A DNA stretch of 20,000 nt from an uncultured virus (IMG/VR IMGVR_UViG_3300035670_000136). Lineage: Duplodnaviria > Heunggongvirae > Uroviricota > Caudoviricetes. Both the position numbers and the translations under genes were made by a program. The stretch lies in the IMG/VR virus record IMGVR_UViG_3300035670_000136; one strand, written 5' to 3'. Below are positions 2 through 12,114 of the stretch, in pieces; positions within the stretch are counted from its first letter, which is position 1; each line of letters opens with the position of its first letter. The notes beneath the pieces were generated by a model. That model saw only the letters and a program-made list of their open reading frames with translations. It was not told the origin of the DNA and searched no databases.

Positions 2-502
2 AGAGCATGGCGCGAGCAGCCAGACAAATGGTGGTCAGAAAAATTCGGTCGTGAGTTTTCACCAAGATTAGCACTCCAGCTAATGGGCACAGAGGCAGGT
101 CGTGATGTATTTCACCCCGACCTCTGGGTTCATACTGTAATGCGTCGATGTGAACAGGCGCCATATCACAATTATGTCATTGCTGATGTTCGTTTCCCAA
201 ACGAGATTAATGCAATTGTAGAATCTGGCGGCAAAGTTATTCGCGTTCGTCGCGGCGATGAACCTGAGTGGTATGATCTTGCTAGAGAATGTAATCGTGG
301 TCTTCACAGTCCAGATGTGATGCGCAATTCATATCCAGAAGTCCACCAATCGGAGTGGGCTTGGATTGGATCACATTATGATGTTGTTCTCGATAACAAC
401 TGTACTTTGGAAGAATTGACTATAAGGGTTGATAAATTGATAGATTCGTTATATAATAATCGTGTTGAAGCAAATGAGGTTGTAAATTATGAAACTTTCT
501 AA
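2..502 (+). CDS. gp1: Deoxynucleoside monophosphate kinase (T4 gp1-like), 5' truncated by window edge
   Basis: Frame is open from position 2 (RAWREQPDKWWSEKFGREFSPRLALQLMGTEAGR...). The PRxxLQxxGTE..R and VIADVRFPNE motifs, plus H.SE near the C-terminus, are typical of phage dNMP kinases. Confidence 0.9.
   Translation, partial: RAWREQPDKWWSEKFGREFSPRLALQLMGTEAGRDVFHPDLWVHTVMRRCEQAPYHNYVIADVRFPNEINAIVESGGKVIRVRRGDEPEWYDLARECNRGLHSPDVMRNSYPEVHQSEWAWIGSHYDVVLDNNCTLEELTIRVDKLIDSLYNNRVEANEVVNYETF
429..457 (+). promoter_or_regulatory. Sigma70-type promoter upstream of the sliding clamp gene
   Basis: TTGATA (429-434), 17-bp spacer, TATAAT (452-457); lies 31 nt before the gp45 ATG. Confidence 0.6.
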
Positions 503-1172
503 TGATACTGTGACTATTTTGAAAAACTTTGCGTCAATCAACAGTGGGATTGTCGTCAAGCCAGGTAATAAACTTCGAACAATTTCCGCCAACAAGGCAA
601 TTCTCGCAGAAGCAACTGTTGCAGAAACCTTTCCGCATGAGTTTGGAATTTATGACTTGAATAAGTCACTTGGTCTTTTGTCGATGAATAAGAACGACAA
701 TGAAGTAGAGATCCTACAAGACTTTCTCGTCTTCAAGAGTTTGAACGGTAAGGGTACGATTCGTCAGCGTTTCACCGCAACTAATCTTATTCTCTGCCCT
801 CCAAACAAGAGCATTAACATTGCAGCATATGAAGTGAAGTTTACACTTCCTGCTGAAACTTTAAATTGGGTATTCAGTGTTGCTTCAATTTTGAAGTGTC
901 CAAACGTTGTTGTAAGTAATGAAGATGGTAAAGTCGCGATTGCTGCAATGGACGTTAAAGGTGAAATCGTAGACGACGCAAAGGTCGTTCTTGATAGCGA
1001 TACTGATACCAAATTCCAGGCAACTCTTAAGATCGAAAATCTTAAGGTCGTTCCCGATGAATATGTTGTTGAGATTTCTTCAGTTGGTGTTTCGAAGTTC
1101 CATAATGAGTCGAAGAATCTGACCTATTGGATTGCAATTGAAGCCGCTAACTCTACCTTCGGAGAAGAATAA
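489..1172 (+). CDS. gp45: DNA polymerase sliding clamp (T4 gp45-like)
   Basis: N-terminus MKLSNDTVTILKNFASINSGIV, FGIYDLN motif, C-terminal YWIAIE; 227 aa; upstream of the clamp loader. Confidence 0.95.
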   Translation: MKLSNDTVTILKNFASINSGIVVKPGNKLRTISANKAILAEATVAETFPHEFGIYDLNKSLGLLSMNKNDNEVEILQDFLVFKSLNGKGTIRQRFTATNLILCPPNKSINIAAYEVKFTLPAETLNWVFSVASILKCPNVVVSNEDGKVAIAAMDVKGEIVDDAKVVLDSDTDTKFQATLKIENLKVVPDEYVVEISSVGVSKFHNESKNLTYWIAIEAANSTFGEE

Positions 1173-1408
1173 TGGCACTTGATAAAGCAAAGGTTTTGGG
1201 ATGCCTTCAAGAAATCTCAAACTCTCTCACTCGTATTGAGGCTGAGCGCGATCTGATTAAAGAGATTCTTCAGAAGATGCAAGACGAATGCGAGATTCCC
1301 AAGAAGTTGGCTCGTAAACTGGCGAAAGTTTACCACAAGCGTAGTTTTGAAGAAGAAGTTGCCGAGCAGAACGACTTCGTTGAAATTTACGAAAACGTGG
1401 CTAAGTGA
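1172..1408 (+). CDS. Small dsDNA-binding protein (phage DsbA/GapR-like)
   Basis: 78-aa helical protein, pattern IEAERDLIKEI...KLAKVYHK..F.EE; coupled to gp45 by a TAATG overlap; family assigned from recall. Confidence 0.6.
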   Translation: MALDKAKVLGCLQEISNSLTRIEAERDLIKEILQKMQDECEIPKKLARKLAKVYHKRSFEEEVAEQNDFVEIYENVAK

Positions 1409-1420
1409 CTATATAATACT

Positions 1421-1493
1421 AAGAGGTGTAGCGTTCTGCTAATGGTACAATCCGCCAGACTGCCACCATGGGACTTCACCTTCCCCACCTCTT
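1421..1493 (+). ncRNA. Candidate structured ncRNA, perfect four-way junction (tRNA-like cloverleaf, not a canonical tRNA)
   Basis: P1 AAGAGGTG(1421-28)/CACCTCTT(1486-93); P2 TAGCG-ttc-TGCTA (1429-41); P3 ATGGT(1442-46)/ACCAT(1465-69); P4 GGGA-cttcacct-TCCC (1470-85). No linker nucleotides between stems; TATAAT at 1412-17 upstream; U-rich tract downstream. Confidence 0.6.
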
Positions 1494-1504
1494 TCTTTTT
1501 GATT

Positions 1505-1577
1505 TGTATAAATAGAGATGTCCCTCGCGGAACGGCAATTCCCAGGGACCCTAATACTGCAAAGGAGTATCAGCATG
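1505..1577 (+). promoter_or_regulatory. Late promoter plus structured leader (copy 1) of an endonuclease-like gene
   Basis: TATAAATA (1507-14, T4 late consensus); GTCCCT-cgc-GGAA-cggcaa-TTCC-c-AGGGAC (1520-49); ATACT-gcaaagg-AGTAT (1554-70) overlapping the SD GGAG; ATG at 1575. Confidence 0.8.
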
Positions 1578-1955
1578 TCTATTTATACATATAAGACTCA
1601 TAAGGCTCTCTGTAAATTATTCAATACAGAGTATCACGAAGACCCTTCATTCAGTGACCAACAATTGAATTGTGTTCCGAAAGATTCTACACTCATAGAA
1701 CCATGGAATAAAGGAAATGAACTGTTTATGGGTAAAAATAATCCCATGGCAGAAAGAACTGGCGAAAAACATTTCTTTTGGGGTAAGACTCATACAGATT
1801 CTGCGAAAAAAAGAATTAGTCTTGCTTTAGTTGAACGTATGAAGGATTATGAATACCGAACAGTTGAATGCCCTCATTGCCGTAAAGTTGGTGGCGTAAA
1901 CAATATGAATCGGTATCATTTTAATAAATGTAAATCTTTGCAATGGAGTAATTGA
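1575..1955 (+). CDS. Homing-endonuclease-related DNA-binding protein (NUMOD3-like motif + C-terminal Zn finger), no recognisable nuclease domain
   Basis: GEKHFFWGKTHTDSAKKRIS is NUMOD3-like; C-terminal CPHC...MNRYHFNKC. Start moved from 1518 to 1575 because of the AAGGAG SD; 126 aa. Confidence 0.75.
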   Translation: MSIYTYKTHKALCKLFNTEYHEDPSFSDQQLNCVPKDSTLIEPWNKGNELFMGKNNPMAERTGEKHFFWGKTHTDSAKKRISLALVERMKDYEYRTVECPHCRKVGGVNNMNRYHFNKCKSLQWSN

Positions 1956-1957
1956 TC

Positions 1958-2278
1958 ATGGCAACAAGACGTAATTTTTTCAAGTATCTTGGTCTTGCTG
2001 GTGGTGTAGCCACTGGTGGTGTTGTAGCCGCTGCTGCTGTTCTTCCTGATGCTGAGAAGTGTGAAGTGATAGAAGAAATTCAAGCTGCTGGTTACAATGG
2101 TAAGTTGACACTTGGTAATGAATATGGTCAACTTGCGCCACCAGACGGTACAATCAGTTTTGGTCCAAAATTTGTTCCAGGAACGGAAAAGCGTGTAACC
2201 GCAAGTATGACCGTCGGTCCTGATGGTGAAATGTACTTGCTTACAAACGGGAAATGGCGTAGAATAGTGACTGAGTGA
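1958..2278 (+). CDS. Hypothetical protein with twin-arginine (Tat)-like signal peptide
   Basis: MATRRNFFKYLGLAGGVATGGVVAAAA matches S/T-R-R-x-F-[L/F]-K followed by a hydrophobic, Gly/Ala-rich stretch; SD GGAG upstream. Confidence 0.7.
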   Translation: MATRRNFFKYLGLAGGVATGGVVAAAAVLPDAEKCEVIEEIQAAGYNGKLTLGNEYGQLAPPDGTISFGPKFVPGTEKRVTASMTVGPDGEMYLLTNGKWRRIVTE

Positions 2279-2305
2279 TTTATTATATTATGAAGGGGTT
2301 ATATT

Positions 2306-3250
2306 ATGTTGCAAAATGTGGAACTGTTGTGGGTCGAAAAATATCGACCTAAAACTATTGAAGATTGTATCCTTCCTGAAAACTTTAAGAAAACCTTTCA
2401 AGAGTATGTAGCGCGCAAAGAAATTCCAAACATGATCCTTTCGGGTTCAGCAGGTGTCGGTAAGACAACTGTTGCCCGAGCGATGTGTGAAGAGATTGAG
2501 TGTGATTATATTATTATCAACGGTTCAGATGAATCAGGTATTGATACTCTACGTGTAAAGATTAAAGGGTTCGCTTCCTCCGTTTCTCTGACGGGAACAG
2601 GAAGAAAGGTAATTATTATCGATGAGGCAGACTATCTAACTGCCAATGCTCAAGCCGCATTCCGTGGCGTTATCGAAGAGTTTTCTAAAAACTGTTCGTT
2701 TATCTTCACTTGCAACTTTAAAAATCGAATCATTCAACCGCTACACTCTCGATGTGCGGTAATTGATTTCAAGTTACAGAACGGTCAGAAAGCGAAGATG
2801 GCTTCTGCTTTTCTTAAGCGTGTTGAGCAGATTCTTAAAGAAGAAAAGATCTCGTATGATCTGAAGGTCGTAGCCGAACTGATTACAAAGTTCTTCCCCG
2901 ATTATCGAAGAATTTTAAATGAACTCCAGCGATACAGCGTTGGTGGTACGATCGATATTGGTATTCTTTCTAACATTGGCGATTTTAAAATCACTGAACT
3001 TGTCGCCTTTTTAAAAGAGAAAGACTTCCGAAGTGTTCGTAAGTGGGTCGCCCAGAATACCGACAACGATACTCATCGAATTATGCGCGAAATTTACGAC
3101 AAATTATATGACGTTTTAAATCCAACCACGATTCCAATGGCAGTTATTCTTCTTGGTAAGTATCAGTATCAAGCCGCCTTTGCAGCCGATCAGGAAATCA
3201 ATCTTATGGCGTTCTTGACCGAACTCATGGTCGATTGCGAGTTTAAGTGA
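2306..3250 (+). CDS. gp44: Clamp loader large subunit (T4 gp44-like, RFC-type AAA+)
   Basis: LWVEKYRP, Walker A GSAGVGKTT, Walker B IIIDEAD, and SRC motif. Confidence 0.97.
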   Translation: MLQNVELLWVEKYRPKTIEDCILPENFKKTFQEYVARKEIPNMILSGSAGVGKTTVARAMCEEIECDYIIINGSDESGIDTLRVKIKGFASSVSLTGTGRKVIIIDEADYLTANAQAAFRGVIEEFSKNCSFIFTCNFKNRIIQPLHSRCAVIDFKLQNGQKAKMASAFLKRVEQILKEEKISYDLKVVAELITKFFPDYRRILNELQRYSVGGTIDIGILSNIGDFKITELVAFLKEKDFRSVRKWVAQNTDNDTHRIMREIYDKLYDVLNPTTIPMAVILLGKYQYQAAFAADQEINLMAFLTELMVDCEFK

Positions 3251-3251
3251 T

Positions 3252-3422
3252 ATGGAAACATTATGTCTTCGAAATGCTCCAAAGCGATATATTGTGAGTA
3301 TTGGTAATAAGATACTATTAGTTACGCATGACCATCGTTATGCAAAACAAGTAGAGGCAGAGATTCGTATTCGTAAAATAACTGACGAATCTTACACAGT
3401 TATTTCTGGGGGGACTAAATGA
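3252..3422 (+). CDS. Small hypothetical protein (56 aa), not in the ORF track
   Basis: ATG at 3252 is 1 nt after the gp44 stop; METLCLRNAPKRYIV...ISGGTK*; the stop overlaps the gp62 start (ATGA) and the ORF fills the gap exactly. Confidence 0.6.
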   Translation: METLCLRNAPKRYIVSIGNKILLVTHDHRYAKQVEAEIRIRKITDESYTVISGGTK

Positions 3423-3790
3423 CTGACCTATTCAAGGATATCGTACCGAGTATTCTTCAAACTAAAAAGCCAATATTGGAGGACGAAAAAGACTACAATT
3501 CCTTTATGGTAAATCGAGCACTTTCGTATCATATGGATTGCATAATGTATGCTAACCAAATGAACGTTAATTTCGGTCTGGATAGAAAACCTCAGTATGA
3601 CTATTTAATAAATATAGTCAGGGCGAAGAAACGAAACTTTGCCAAATGGGAAAAACCCATACAAGAGGATAATTTGCAATCAATAAAGTTATTTTTCGGT
3701 TATTCTGATGCCAAGGCTGCAGAGGCTTTGAAAGTACTGACTGATGAGCAAATTGATATTATAAAAGAAAAAACGAAAATAGGTGACTGA
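3419..3790 (+). CDS. gp62: Clamp loader small subunit (T4 gp62-like)
   Basis: YNSFMVNRALS...D.IMYANQMN, QYDYL...R.KKR.F.KW.K, FGYS..KA.EAL..L; position between gp44 and regA. Confidence 0.93.
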   Translation: MTDLFKDIVPSILQTKKPILEDEKDYNSFMVNRALSYHMDCIMYANQMNVNFGLDRKPQYDYLINIVRAKKRNFAKWEKPIQEDNLQSIKLFFGYSDAKAAEALKVLTDEQIDIIKEKTKIGD

Positions 3791-3791
3791 A

Positions 3792-4199
3792 ATGAGTGTT
3801 GATAATTTAGTGGAAGTGACGCTACAGAATGCTGATGACTTCCTCAAAATCCGCGAGACACTAACGCGCATCGGTGTAGCCGCTAAAAAAGAAAATATTT
3901 TATATCAATCTTGCCATATTCTACATAAGCAAGGTCGCTATTACATAGTTCATTTCAAAGAATTATTTTTGCTAGATGGTAAAGCATCAAGCATCTCTGA
4001 AAATGATCTTGCTCGTCGTAATTCGATTGCAAATCTTTTAGAGGAGTGGGGATTGCTAAAGGTTGTTGATTCCGAAAAGATCAAAGAACCAAAAGCGCCA
4101 CTATCTCAAATTAAAATTATTGCTTTCAAAGACAAGAACGATTGGCAACTAGTTGCTAAATACAACATAGGTCGTAAGTTGGAGCCAAGACAGCAATGA
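3792..4199 (+). CDS. regA: Translational repressor RegA
   Basis: DDFLKIRETLTRIGVA, LYQSCHILHKQGRYYIVHFKELF.LDG, RRN.IA.LL.EWGL, KYNIG; ATG at 3792 follows SD AGGTGA. Confidence 0.97.
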   Translation: MSVDNLVEVTLQNADDFLKIRETLTRIGVAAKKENILYQSCHILHKQGRYYIVHFKELFLLDGKASSISENDLARRNSIANLLEEWGLLKVVDSEKIKEPKAPLSQIKIIAFKDKNDWQLVAKYNIGRKLEPRQQ

Positions 4200-4735
4200 C
4201 AAACAGAATCAACGACGAAGTTTCTCTATCAGAAGCGGTTAAGTACCACTTAGACGAAAAGATTTCATTTACTGAAAATATTTTTCGTCCAGGTTCTGAT
4301 AAATTCTTTGAGTTGATTCGTGAAGCAAAGAAACTATATTCTCGCGGCATGTATGTACCTGCTGATGAATGGGAAGTTGATTTGCTTGAAAGCGACATCG
4401 GCGAGTTTGCTGAGTTTAATGGCAAACAAGTACCATTAGATTTTCCAATTGAGATTGAAGATATTAACGAAGAAGATAAAACTGAGGGTAAAGGTATCGG
4501 CAAACCATTTCGTCAAGGAAGTGGTGGGGCTGTTTATGTTCGCACCAGTGATGGTAATGTCAAGAAAGTTAATTTCAGTCAATCAGGTATGGCAAAAAAG
4601 TATAACGATCCTGCGCGTGTTCGTTCTTTTGTTGCTCGTCACCACTGTTTGACTAACAAAGATAAGACCAGTGCTTCTTACTGGGCATGCCGTTGGCCAA
4701 GATATTTTTCAAACTCAGGTAAGACTTGGTGGTAA
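4196..4735 (+). CDS. Conserved phage hypothetical protein (acidic N-terminal half; basic C-terminal domain with R.RSF.ARH.C...YWAC)
   Basis: 179-aa ORF coupled to regA by ATGA; two-part charge architecture. Confidence 0.75.
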   Translation: MTNRINDEVSLSEAVKYHLDEKISFTENIFRPGSDKFFELIREAKKLYSRGMYVPADEWEVDLLESDIGEFAEFNGKQVPLDFPIEIEDINEEDKTEGKGIGKPFRQGSGGAVYVRTSDGNVKKVNFSQSGMAKKYNDPARVRSFVARHHCLTNKDKTSASYWACRWPRYFSNSGKTWW

Positions 4736-5662: not shown

Positions 5663-6235
5663 ATGCTCTCAGTGAATGTATATCGACTTCGTGATGATAT
5701 TGAACTTCCAACATATGGCACTTCTTTAGCAAATTGCTTTGATTTATCATTCCAACCAACTTCAAACGTTGTGAGTGGATATGATTCATTCAATTCACCA
5801 ATTGAATATAATGTAAATCATTTAGGTGAGTTGTCAGTCTATCCTGGTGATCGTTTGCTCATCCCTACAGGATTGATCTTCAAGATCGAACGCTACGTTA
5901 CAATTGAGACGTTTGCAGACATTGCACGACACGACGACGAACTTCCACTTCAGAACTATAGCATTCGCCTTCATCCTCGCTCAGGGCTTTCGCTTAAGAA
6001 AGGATTGATCCTAGCGAACTGCGAAGGCATTGTTGATGTTGATTATCAAGAGGAAGTGTTTGTTCTTTTGACGAACGTTTCTAAAATGCATACAACAATT
6101 CGTCGTGGTGATCGCATTGCTCAGGCTGAAATTGTTGCAAATGAACCATTTCAGTTTATTGTTGCCTCTGAGAGACCAGAAAAACACTCCGAAAGAAGTG
6201 GCGGTTTTGGAAGCACAGGCGTAAATAATGCCTAA
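5663..6235 (+). CDS. dut: Trimeric dUTPase
   Basis: Motifs FDL, PRSGLS, GIVDVDYQEE, RIAQ and RSGGFGSTG. Confidence 0.93.
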   Translation: MLSVNVYRLRDDIELPTYGTSLANCFDLSFQPTSNVVSGYDSFNSPIEYNVNHLGELSVYPGDRLLIPTGLIFKIERYVTIETFADIARHDDELPLQNYSIRLHPRSGLSLKKGLILANCEGIVDVDYQEEVFVLLTNVSKMHTTIRRGDRIAQAEIVANEPFQFIVASERPEKHSERSGGFGSTGVNNA

Positions 6236-6296
6236 ATAGTATTGGATGCCCATATGGGGTCTATAACTATAAACTTGCTTATTAAAGGAGTTACAA
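6232..6296 (+). promoter_or_regulatory. hsp20 leader: late-promoter-like CTAAATA, small hairpin and ROSE-like SD-occluding hairpin
   Basis: CTAAATA at 6232-38; GGATGCCC-atat-GGGGTCT (6244-62); CTTGCTT(6274-80)-atta-AAGGAG(6285-90) pairing with a bulged G. Confidence 0.55.
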
Positions 6297-6740
6297 ATGA
6301 CTAATATAACTGCACTTACATCTATGGATCATCTTGATCGTTTACTTCCAGCAGCACTTGGTTTTGAACATGTGTTTTCTACGCTGGACAACGCAACCAG
6401 AATCTTAACTGCAACAGGAACTACATCGTTCCCACCTGTGAACGTCATTAAAACTGACGAATACAATTTCACAGTTGAACTTGCAGTCGCTGGTTATAAA
6501 CAAGATGAAATCGAAATCACTTCTGAGAGAAACTCTCTAAAAATCAAAGGCAAAAAGACAGACACCGACGAACGCAACTATCTTGTAAAGGGTATTGCTG
6601 GTCGTCAGTTTTCTCGCCAATTTGTTCTTGCTGACACAGTAGTGGTTCGTGATGCGACTCTTGCTGATGGCATTCTTTCTATTCAATTAGAAAATGTCAT
6701 TCCTGAAGAACAGAAACCTCGTAAGATTGATATCAAATAA
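6297..6740 (+). CDS. hsp20: Small heat shock protein (Hsp20/IbpA-like)
   Basis: FPPVNVIK, ELAVAGY, YLVKGIAGRQFSRQF.LAD, A.L.DGIL.I.LE..IPEEQKPRKI.I. Confidence 0.95.
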   Translation: MTNITALTSMDHLDRLLPAALGFEHVFSTLDNATRILTATGTTSFPPVNVIKTDEYNFTVELAVAGYKQDEIEITSERNSLKIKGKKTDTDERNYLVKGIAGRQFSRQFVLADTVVVRDATLADGILSIQLENVIPEEQKPRKIDIK

Positions 6741-11259: not shown

Positions 11260-11576
11260 TGATCTATTGCGCTGCGCGTTTCAAACCAAAGAAGAAGCGT
11301 AAGCCAAAAGGTGTGATTGCGAAGAAGTATAACAAAAGCGCGGCAATTCTCGGAGTAGAGAAACTTCCGCGCCTTGAATATGGTTCACGAGTTGGGGCTG
11401 ATGCTGCTCGCAGTGTTCAGTCGCTCAATTCTGATAAAATCTTTACAGAAAAAAGAGAGAGCCTGATGTATACAGGCGAAAGAAAATTGTTGGGTGTGGC
11501 TGTAATGCATAAATCAAATTTGGTTCCAGTATTCGATCAAAAAGAGGCTGAAGAAATTTCTAAGATGAGACGCTAG
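11256..11576 (+). CDS. Basic hypothetical phage protein (C-terminal YTG...MHKSN.VPV...ISxMRR)
   Basis: 106 aa, Lys/Arg-rich; 3' end overlaps the convergent HNH gene. Confidence 0.8.
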   Translation: MMIYCAARFKPKKKRKPKGVIAKKYNKSAAILGVEKLPRLEYGSRVGADAARSVQSLNSDKIFTEKRESLMYTGERKLLGVAVMHKSNLVPVFDQKEAEEISKMRR

Positions 11577-12114
11577 AACAATTTGAAAAATGCCATCGAT
11601 TCATTGAACTTTTTTGCCCTTGTTTACCGCAATTAGGGCATTTTACTGTTTGTCCAAAAGGATGTTTTTGTTCTTCGATCAATTTCTTGCTTCTTTTCCC
11701 TACAACTTCTGCGTGTTTTTTAGATTGCCAATGATGTAATCTCGAAGCAACTAAAGATCTTTGTGTAATATCGGCAGGTCTGTTCCCGACATTTTGTTGA
11801 AAGTGATGAGTCCCTAATTTGACTTTTTTTCTAGATGGATTATTATCGCCTAAAAAATTATGCGTTTTGGTCGCTAATCTTTCTAAGTTTGAAATTTTAG
11901 AACCTTCGCTTTGTAGAAATTTTATGATGTCACCTTTATTCATTTGTCCAGATAAACCTTTCCAGGCTGCGAAATCTTCAGGACAACCGTATTGTTCGAA
12001 CAACTTTCGATGCGCTTCGGCATGCTCTTCGACAGTGAGTTCGATGATATTTGATGGGTCGTCAGTGCCGCCCATGTGTTTTGGTATGATATGATGCTTG
12101 TGATATATACACAT
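11560..12114 (-). CDS. Free-standing HNH homing endonuclease with C-terminal Zn finger
   Basis: HHIIPKHMGGTDDPSNIIELTVEEHAEAH (HNH); C-terminal CPNCGK...MNRWHFSNC; the only credible minus-strand gene; has its own promoter and SD. Confidence 0.88.
   Translation of the reverse strand: MCIYHKHHIIPKHMGGTDDPSNIIELTVEEHAEAHRKLFEQYGCPEDFAAWKGLSGQMNKGDIIKFLQSEGSKISNLERLATKTHNFLGDNNPSRKKVKLGTHHFQQNVGNRPADITQRSLVASRLHHWQSKKHAEVVGKRSKKLIEEQKHPFGQTVKCPNCGKQGQKSSMNRWHFSNCSSVSS

Follow-up and report, generated by a model that had tools for sequence, protein, structure and literature searches.

What occupies the short interval between dsbA and the clamp-loader gene in the replication operon of certain T4-like phages, and what would such an element act on? 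The window, a stretch of 20,000 nucleotides from an uncultured virus (IMG/VR IMGVR_UViG_3300035670_000136), is part of a T4-like phage genome with the gene order dNMP kinase, gp45 clamp, DsbA, gp44, gp62 and regA. The gp45 gene lies at 489-1172, and dsbA (1172..1408, + strand; PF11126, phrog_639) is the 5' neighbour with which the element travels. The gp44 clamp-loader gene (2306..3250, + strand; phrog_168) is the fixed landmark on the 3' side and directly adjoins the element in many relatives. A first-pass annotation, made from the letters alone, had described a tRNA-sized four-way-junction RNA at this place; its structure was borne out by comparison with related phages, and a different role is proposed here.

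In the window, a separate inserted cassette (1507..1955, + strand) follows directly behind the RNA and consists of a late promoter (TATAAATA, 1507-1514), a hairpin (1520-1549) and a NUMOD3 homing-endonuclease-like ORF (1575-1955). It stands outside the RNA family, since only the window and L040 have it among 36 distinct downstream stretches. The replication operon of the window (489-4199) is a mosaic: its DsbA is about 90% identical to that of the common clade, gp45 about 40% and gp44 about 63%, and gp44 clusters with phages without the RNA. The cultured gp44 relatives were all less than 60% identical (best 40 listed). Blastn of the RNA region against cultured phages gave 15 short matches at chance level, and a covariance-model search of the DLP6 and BUDD genomes gave no signal above noise.

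Some other features were recorded along the way. A second phrog_655 gene lies at 11560-12114 on the minus strand of the window. A ROSE_3-like thermometer (6240-6302; 32.6 bits, cut-off 43), with CTAAATA at 6232, lies where a phage Hsp20 gene (6297-6740) begins and also occurs in L322 (39.1 bits) and L402. Near the gp44 end of L322, a weak SAM-SAH riboswitch-like score (4284-4324; 24 bits, cut-off 40, E 0.3) is probably due to chance.

The window encodes a four-way-junction RNA

The RNA occupies 1421-1493 on the + strand (73 nt) and folds into a four-way junction whose helices abut with zero linker letters, as the first-pass annotation had described, one pair in P2 being a G-U. The outer helix P1 joins 1421-1428 to 1486-1493, and its 3' strand could alternatively pair with nt 4-9 of the initiator tRNA discussed below, wobbles included, as a possible switch. 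The P2 hairpin (1429-1441) pairs 1429-1433 with 1437-1441, is variable in sequence and loop size among relatives, and has a GNRA-type loop in L132 and L402. The P3 hairpin (1442-1469) is formed by 1442-1446 and 1465-1469, five base pairs that all covary, and encloses loop 3 (1447-1464, 18 nt). The P4 hairpin (1470-1485) pairs 1470-1473 with 1482-1485 and encloses loop 4 (1474-1481, 8 nt). Inspection by eye for a pseudoknot between loop 3 and loop 4 never found complementarity of more than 2 bp. P1 and P4 together give 11-12 stacked pairs, which in the modelled fold would be compatible with cutting by RNase P.

The junction is the minimum-free-energy fold of the window RNA (-21.5 kcal/mol, z -2.08), matched by 3 of 200 dinucleotide shuffles, and a perfect four-way junction arose in none of 500 mononucleotide shuffles; the GC content is 52%. 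The single-sequence fold signal is modest and the comparative signal, given below, is strong. ARAGORN called no tRNA at this locus of the window, and Rfam gave no match to the RNA at E<=5 for the window nor at E<=2 for eight homologous loci. A tRNA or pseudo-tRNA was rejected for want of any ARAGORN or RF00005 score, CCA occurring only inside P1 and being absent in the window. A simple intrinsic terminator was rejected as well: related loci have four covarying helices and fixed loops, not a terminator hairpin only, and the element was not listed by a terminator scan.

The RNA belongs to a covarying family in freshwater T4-like phages

Within one clade of freshwater T4-like phages, the RNA has its place between dsbA and the clamp-loader gene. 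At 80 viral loci selected by the DsbA protein alone the loop motif was found in 79, the remaining locus stopping 23 nt past the dsbA stop codon. Two more DsbA searches found the strict motif in 136 of 154, the others being variants, cut contigs or phages without the RNA. A covariance model built on 46 copies matched 69 of the 80 metagenome loci, a set that overlaps the model-building genomes, and gave one match per genome in five large contigs.

The first-pass annotation had looked to covariation in the region behind dsbA of related phages to decide whether the structure is real. In a plain, unfitted MAFFT alignment of the 46 copies, 91% of the cells pair and 17 of the 20 pairs change on both sides, a level of covariation reached by none of 500 shuffles, whereas slid registers pair in 42-61%. 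A fitted alignment gave 98% of cells paired and changes on both sides at 16 of the 20 pairs. All four helices show such changes; P2 is unconstrained in sequence, and P3 is constant in length at 5 bp. Among the model matches, which were not picked by motif, all 69 had the loop-3 core and 68 had TCACC, the remaining one being cut off. A larger set of 92 distinct copies was picked via the core motif, in which the invariance of the core is circular; its sole change, G to A in 2 of 92 copies (L402 and L415), cannot be tied to a host. Loop 3 measures 16-20 nt and loop 4 reads YUCACC across copies. With four covarying helices and no match in ARAGORN or Rfam, the fold is a real RNA structure, not a tRNA, of an uncatalogued family.

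A search of bacterial genomes with the loop pattern returned at least 120 matches, with no junction among those inspected. Twelve large viral contigs with a host-type tRNA-fMet did not carry the RNA, which says little because only two of them have a gp44 relative, at 34% and 27%. Genome bins containing dsbA were considered as a clue to the host and set aside; the two short contigs concerned (Actinomycetota with the RNA, Halanaerobiales without) are likely misbinned. The loop sequence was absent from four supplements of PMC10690425 (Fremin 2023), as far as these were available, and the candidates just upstream of gp44 that were inspected there (DNAVirus_4627, 3658, 8780) are marine; the RNA may be present among the 8,495 unnamed candidates of that study.

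Other structured elements were seen in comparable positions. In L1224 (about 2735-2810) the equivalent slot holds a different folded insert of about 75 nt, with a short closing helix and a U-tract. Eight letters of its last loop are complementary to the tRNA-fMet D loop, which in a single copy may be chance; its pattern gave 0 of 52 matches in a T4 context, and no homologue was found. The RNA-less clade of L417, L422 and L462 has two other conserved hairpins 3' of dsbA (about 3240-3320), the second of which has an invariant, purine-rich loop with ACCGG at its end.

Strand, promoter and organization of the locus

The + strand was taken as the RNA strand. Among 1258 helix cells there were 37 G-U against 1 A-C, and in 74 copies a perfect junction was found in 38 plus-strand as against 22 minus-strand folds. 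The minus strand folded lower in energy in 70 of the 74 copies; therefore the strand is not fixed by energy alone.

A promoter-like motif lies at 1409..1417 (+ strand), where CTATATA overlaps the TATAAT (1412-1417) reported in the first pass. The U-rich tract reported downstream is present too (1494..1500, + strand) and is a possible 3' end; a simple terminator scan did not score this 3' end as a terminator, and over 74 copies the 14 nt after the RNA are 53% T. CTATATA differs by one change from CTAAATA, the late motif at this spot in most relatives. In most copies the CTAAATA-type motif overlaps the last dsbA codons, and it is still present without such overlap in L011, L095, L322 and L466. 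In four genomes, [CA]TAAATA precedes 25 of 81 ORFs in structural regions as against 4 of 111 in replication regions, and the motif was therefore read as a late promoter. With the late-promoter-to-+1 spacing taken from the accessible part of PMC1524935, transcription would start at or just before P1, that is, putatively at 1421 in the window. Lake RNA libraries contain the region, and one contig reaches from dsbA through the RNA to the gp44 start; this evidence consists of assembled contigs, which carry no ends, strand or level. None of 24 sequencing runs screened by sequence words held half of the words.

In five relatives without the RNA, the dsbA stop and the gp44 start are about 20-40 nt apart, with the same type of ribosome-binding region. 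Other sister clades also do without the RNA, and their gp44 start is unchanged; therefore the RNA looks like a stand-alone late small RNA. Unrelated genes have been inserted on either side of it. A quick gp44 tree (55 rows, from 140 distinct proteins thinned at 90% identity) showed the RNA in all but one of a 29-row group and in L825, and placed the window and L087 among RNA-less phages (98% SH-aLRT), so that the RNA came with dsbA and not with the clamp loader. This distribution favours an accessory small-RNA gene over a required gp44 leader. The stand-alone transcript foreseen in the first-pass annotation is thus probable, a CTAAATA-type motif standing 4-9 nt upstream of P1 in 70 of 74 copies and the RNA being cleanly missing from sister phages.

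The two conserved loops complement initiator tRNA-fMet

Loop 3 (GCCAGACUGC[UC]) and loop 4 (UCACC) jointly complement one continuous stretch, nt 5-21, of the tRNA-fMet type found in Burkholderiales and other bacteria. In the window, 1454-1463 complements tRNA-fMet nt 12-21, in the D loop and D stem, without a mismatch (every letter counted), 1447-1453 keeps the same register with mismatches, and 1475-1481 complements nt 11 to 5, adjoining the loop-3 site. Across the 92 distinct copies loop 3 covers tRNA nt 10/12-21 and loop 4 nt 5-10, and 90 of them have a P1 3' strand able to pair with nt 4-9, wobbles included. The two loop sites abut on the tRNA with a gap of 0-1. The joined two-loop complement (16 letters) gave at least 120 matches, and among those listed 107 were initiator-type tRNA-Met(CAT) by ARAGORN and 4 further ones cut tRNA copies, mostly, among the 80 for which a title was given, from Beta- and Gammaproteobacteria; this shows only that the tRNA site exists.

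The loop-3 complement first drew attention by its resemblance to the D arm of an initiator tRNA, and this was then put to the test. The partner test covered 41 tRNAs and the rRNA operon (9,080 nt) of one freshwater Burkholderiales genome, which was chosen for having the matching tRNA and may not be that of the phage's host. There tRNA-fMet was the best two-loop partner for four different copies, with a score of 16-17 against 11.5-13 for the others. The shuffle rates understate the search space, the pairing idea having come from the likeness to known tRNA sequences before any test: shuffled loops of the four copies reached the tRNA-fMet score in 8, 7, 4 and 3 of 1000 cases; with the invariant 9+5 letters 18 of 5000 shuffles did so (56 of 5000 under looser rules) and with the majority 12+4 letters 0 of 5000; for loop 3 alone the counts were 225, 60 and 2 of 5000 for 9, 10 and 12 letters. 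The loop-3 9-mer fits tRNA-Pro too, and the complement of the 10-mer occurs 5-81 times per genome, which speaks against uniqueness. In the G010 genome (L482) it occurs 81 times against 5 for the reversed control, perhaps reflecting codon bias or a repeat.

Beyond the core, the rest of loop 3 in the main clade stays in register at tRNA nt 23, 25, 27 and 28 and is mismatched at 22, 24 and 26. The extended register matched 16 of 19 and 17 of 19 letters in L001 and L114 (5 and 0 of 3000 shuffles), was borderline in the window (14 of 18 letters, 151 of 3000 shuffles) and was not significant in four distant copies. Natural loops hardly pair with themselves (0 to -0.4 kcal/mol, as against -3.9 for an exact complement); the mismatches at 22, 24 and 26 would prevent loop 3 from forming a mirror image of the D stem. 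Moreover, each of 97 distinct copies has a match to tRNA A11 in loop 3 or in loop 4, a double mismatch never occurring. Where loop 3 lacks the A11 match (23 copies including the window) loop 4 always supplies it, whereas otherwise loop 4 is free (17 of 74); for this hand-off Fisher's p is 0.01, uncorrected for kinship, the 23 copies coming from few lineages.

The exact site occurs in 42 of 61 Burkholderiales genomes (not each confirmed as tRNA). Its U20 form is widespread in other phyla (tRNA-Met in 114 of the 120 matches listed) and fits both loop forms, and host range is therefore not pinned. A search for variants aimed at other D-loop types gave at least 120 matches with four loose parses, none convincing and none listed in a T4 context. 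The first-pass annotation had speculated about a tRNA mimic or a decoy for anticodon nucleases. This received no support: an anticodon arm, a T loop with A58 and a free 3' CCA are not conserved, and what the invariant loop letters spell is complementary to the tRNA and does not copy it. Judged by their letters, the loops are antisense to a tRNA, not a tRNA mimic, and we regard base-pairing of the RNA with the tRNA, in whatever form, as probable.

A possible antisense clamp on the host initiator tRNA

It is fairly likely that the four-way-junction RNA clamps the host initiator tRNA via its D arm, either trapping or sensing it. Our preferred reading, with a probability of roughly 0.4, is a stand-alone late small RNA of about 75-80 nt that would pair with host tRNA-fMet in trans as a two-loop antisense clamp. 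P2 would stack on P3 and P4 on P1, presenting loops 3 and 4 side by side, and the constant 5-bp P3 together with the 5-7 nt from junction to CACC would keep the two sites in register. Loop 3 would seed on the tRNA D loop and then unzip the D stem, and loop 4 would take tRNA nt 5-10/11, giving a clamp of 16-17 bp and breaking the tRNA elbow. The host initiator, its precursor or its 5' half would thus be trapped or routed to decay, and initiation would be handed to the phage's own initiator-like tRNA, which has no clamp site. The likeliest benefit may be that the phage no longer depends on a host initiator open to cleavage or modification by host defences. The outcome of the pairing is the least certain part of this mechanism.

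The D stem is weak (-3.6 kcal/mol) compared with the loop duplex (-21 to -28 kcal/mol), tertiary contacts not counted. Cofolding with the whole tRNA gave a gain of -5 to -13 kcal/mol in a nearest-neighbour model that ignores tertiary structure; in this model tRNA nt 4-9 pair with the P1 strand rather than with loop 4, and P1 opens. That the stems covary while the loops stay fixed was counted for the clamp, and that mature tRNA is compact and modified counts against it. The available text of bioRxiv 10.1101/2021.11.09.467952 says that tRNA fragments inhibit P22, and by analogy a sponge for tRNA fragments is a thinkable role of the RNA.

Five RNA-carrying phages encode 27, 20, 41, 17 and 5 tRNAs; the window's own record (G001, a 21.8-kb fragment) contains no tRNA. 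Among the loci inspected, an initiator-like CAT tRNA with a different D arm is present in four of the five carriers, two of these tRNAs being without the D-loop GG, and in G002, which has two CAT tRNAs, initiator status is not clear. The phage CAT tRNAs score 7-11 against the loops and have no clamp site. Two RNA-less relatives also encode divergent initiator-like tRNAs; therefore the phage initiators permit the clamp model and do not favour it. Initiator-like tRNA-Met genes without D-loop G18G19 were seen in L601 (G003), L598 and L612 (G004) and L997 (G016), and L605 and L598 (G002, G004) contain tRNA genes whose variable arm is long and which were read as Ile(TAT).

Alternative explanations

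The same loop complementarity would also serve a cis-acting, tRNA-sensing switch, analogous to a T-box but directed at the D arm. Loop 3 would capture free tRNA-fMet or the 5' half of it, and this ligand would move from loop 4 to the P1 3' strand, thereby opening P1 and removing a terminator, so that gp44-gp62-regA are read through. The pairing of the P1 3' strand with tRNA nt 4-9, the opening of P1 predicted by cofolding, the constant place upstream of gp44 followed by a U-tract and the library contig that runs from the RNA into gp44 all agree with it. However, the P1 changes are transitions, which automatically leave the pairing to a G/U-rich strand intact, replication genes would not be expected behind a late promoter, and unrelated genes as well as the cassette with its own late promoter have been inserted between the RNA and gp44. 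Moreover, sister phages do without the RNA, and the gp44 of the window groups with RNA-less phages. On balance, we hold such a switch to be unlikely. Where conserved loops lie side by side on a four-way junction, they typically form a site for a ligand or protein, as in the hairpin ribozyme and yybP-ykoY. The loops might thus dock together or bind a protein or small molecule (e.g., DsbA or a host factor), the tRNA match being chance or the relic of an inverted tRNA gene. Two loop-3 letters mismatched to the tRNA are kept in 87 of 92 copies, two junction G-C pairs are nearly invariant, and the RNA travels with dsbA. This leaves unexplained why the sites abut on one special tRNA, the A11 hand-off and the shuffle rates below 1%; a relic would not remain invariant while the stems turn over, and dsbA is also found without the RNA, so that we consider the proposal doubtful.

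The UCACC of loop 4, which equals the 16S anti-Shine-Dalgarno sequence, had been pointed out in the first pass. The match is real and invariant, and AGGTGA indeed stands 5 nt before the ATGs at 3792, 17162 and 18503; it accounts for loop 4 only, and an mRNA site with GGUGA next to the loop-3 complement was not seen to recur. It may still be a second role. A C4-like antisense RNA for mRNA, with loop 4 masking a GGUGA ribosome-binding site and loop 3 the neighbouring stretch, is very unlikely, even if A would be a better partner than tRNA G10 for the U of UCACC. Additional perfect complements of loop 3 number 0, 2, 1, 0 and 1 in five phage genomes: two complete genomes (G002, G005) have none beyond the RNA's own opposite strand, and the three others have 1-2 scattered ones each. 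Sites of the form GGTGA-N0-8-loop-3 occur in 22 of 61 Burkholderiales genomes, scattered and with differing spacers, and the ten that were inspected fall in unrelated long reading frames. A decoy RNA made from the minus strand, exposing a copy of the tRNA-fMet D loop, would fit the lower folding energy of that strand and its better z in the window (-3.19). The excess of G-U over A-C and of perfect plus-strand junctions argues against it, as do the promoter motif, the U-tract, the GNRA loops and the direction of the operon, each of which agrees with the + strand; we rate it highly improbable. Equally hard to credit is that the locus acts as single-stranded DNA, folded so as to take up a 5' fragment of tRNA-fMet for priming replication: the location in the replication operon suits it, and perfect pairing ends at the end of the D loop, where the 3' end of the fragment would be paired, whereas the RNA is dispensable in sister phages, the promoter and the U-tract suggest a transcript, and no origin signature was noticed.

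Significance

Phages bring tRNAs, repair tRNAs and evade tRNA nucleases. A phage RNA that targets a host tRNA would be new; this novelty depends on the tRNA pairing and is probable to the same degree. Searches of open-access titles and abstracts found no report of this RNA or of a phage RNA base-pairing with a host tRNA. The 2010 review PMC3014915 states that in T4 not one trans-acting small RNA had been characterized by then. If true, the clamp would be a new route for taking over or monitoring translation initiation and, next to the T-box, a second RNA in nature that reads tRNA, through another contact. It would also give a reason for the odd D loops of phage initiator tRNAs and a built-in host marker, since the loop must match the host D loop. 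If the pairing fails, there is still an uncatalogued, strongly covarying RNA family.

Comparison with known systems

The T4 RegA operators resemble the RNA in their position near gene 44. A RegA operator was rejected for the RNA itself, since this is a GC-rich fold whereas T4 RegA sites, in the available text of PMC3014915, lack structure, are rich in A and U and extend over the AUG; the AU-rich start of gp44, 3' of the RNA, could be such a site. The same text mentions T4 RNA C and RNA D, small RNAs whose role is not known. They share with the present RNA that they are small RNAs of a T4 phage, and differ in lying in the tRNA region.

Closest in design are the C4 antisense RNA (Rfam RF01695; P1/P7) and the P4 CI and N15 CA RNAs, which, in the sources as far as available, are tRNA-sized phage antisense repressors cut by RNase P. 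C4 RNA has a cloverleaf shape and two loops that pair with two target boxes in the phage's own mRNA. The two-loop complementarity is shared, as a prediction, but would be directed to a host tRNA instead of a phage mRNA; moreover, the RNA has no RF01695 match, belongs to a lytic T4-like phage and has no conserved target in its own genome.

With regard to the target, the nearest system is the T-box riboswitch, which reads, among other parts, the tRNA 3' end. According to the accessible part of PMC10424219, it binds a specific intact tRNA at two places and reads the anticodon. Base pairs with a specific tRNA at two places are predicted here too, and both may control downstream genes, whereas the present RNA, of 73 nt, is complementary to the D arm and nt 5-10 and shows neither T-box motifs nor a match in Rfam. 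Finally, phage tRNAs are described in the available text of PMC10264068 as offsetting host tRNA depletion; VapC-type nucleases cut tRNA-fMet. The phages studied here likewise carry 5-41 tRNAs, including initiator-like ones; in that system the host destroys the tRNA and the phage refills it, whereas here a phage RNA would engage the host tRNA.
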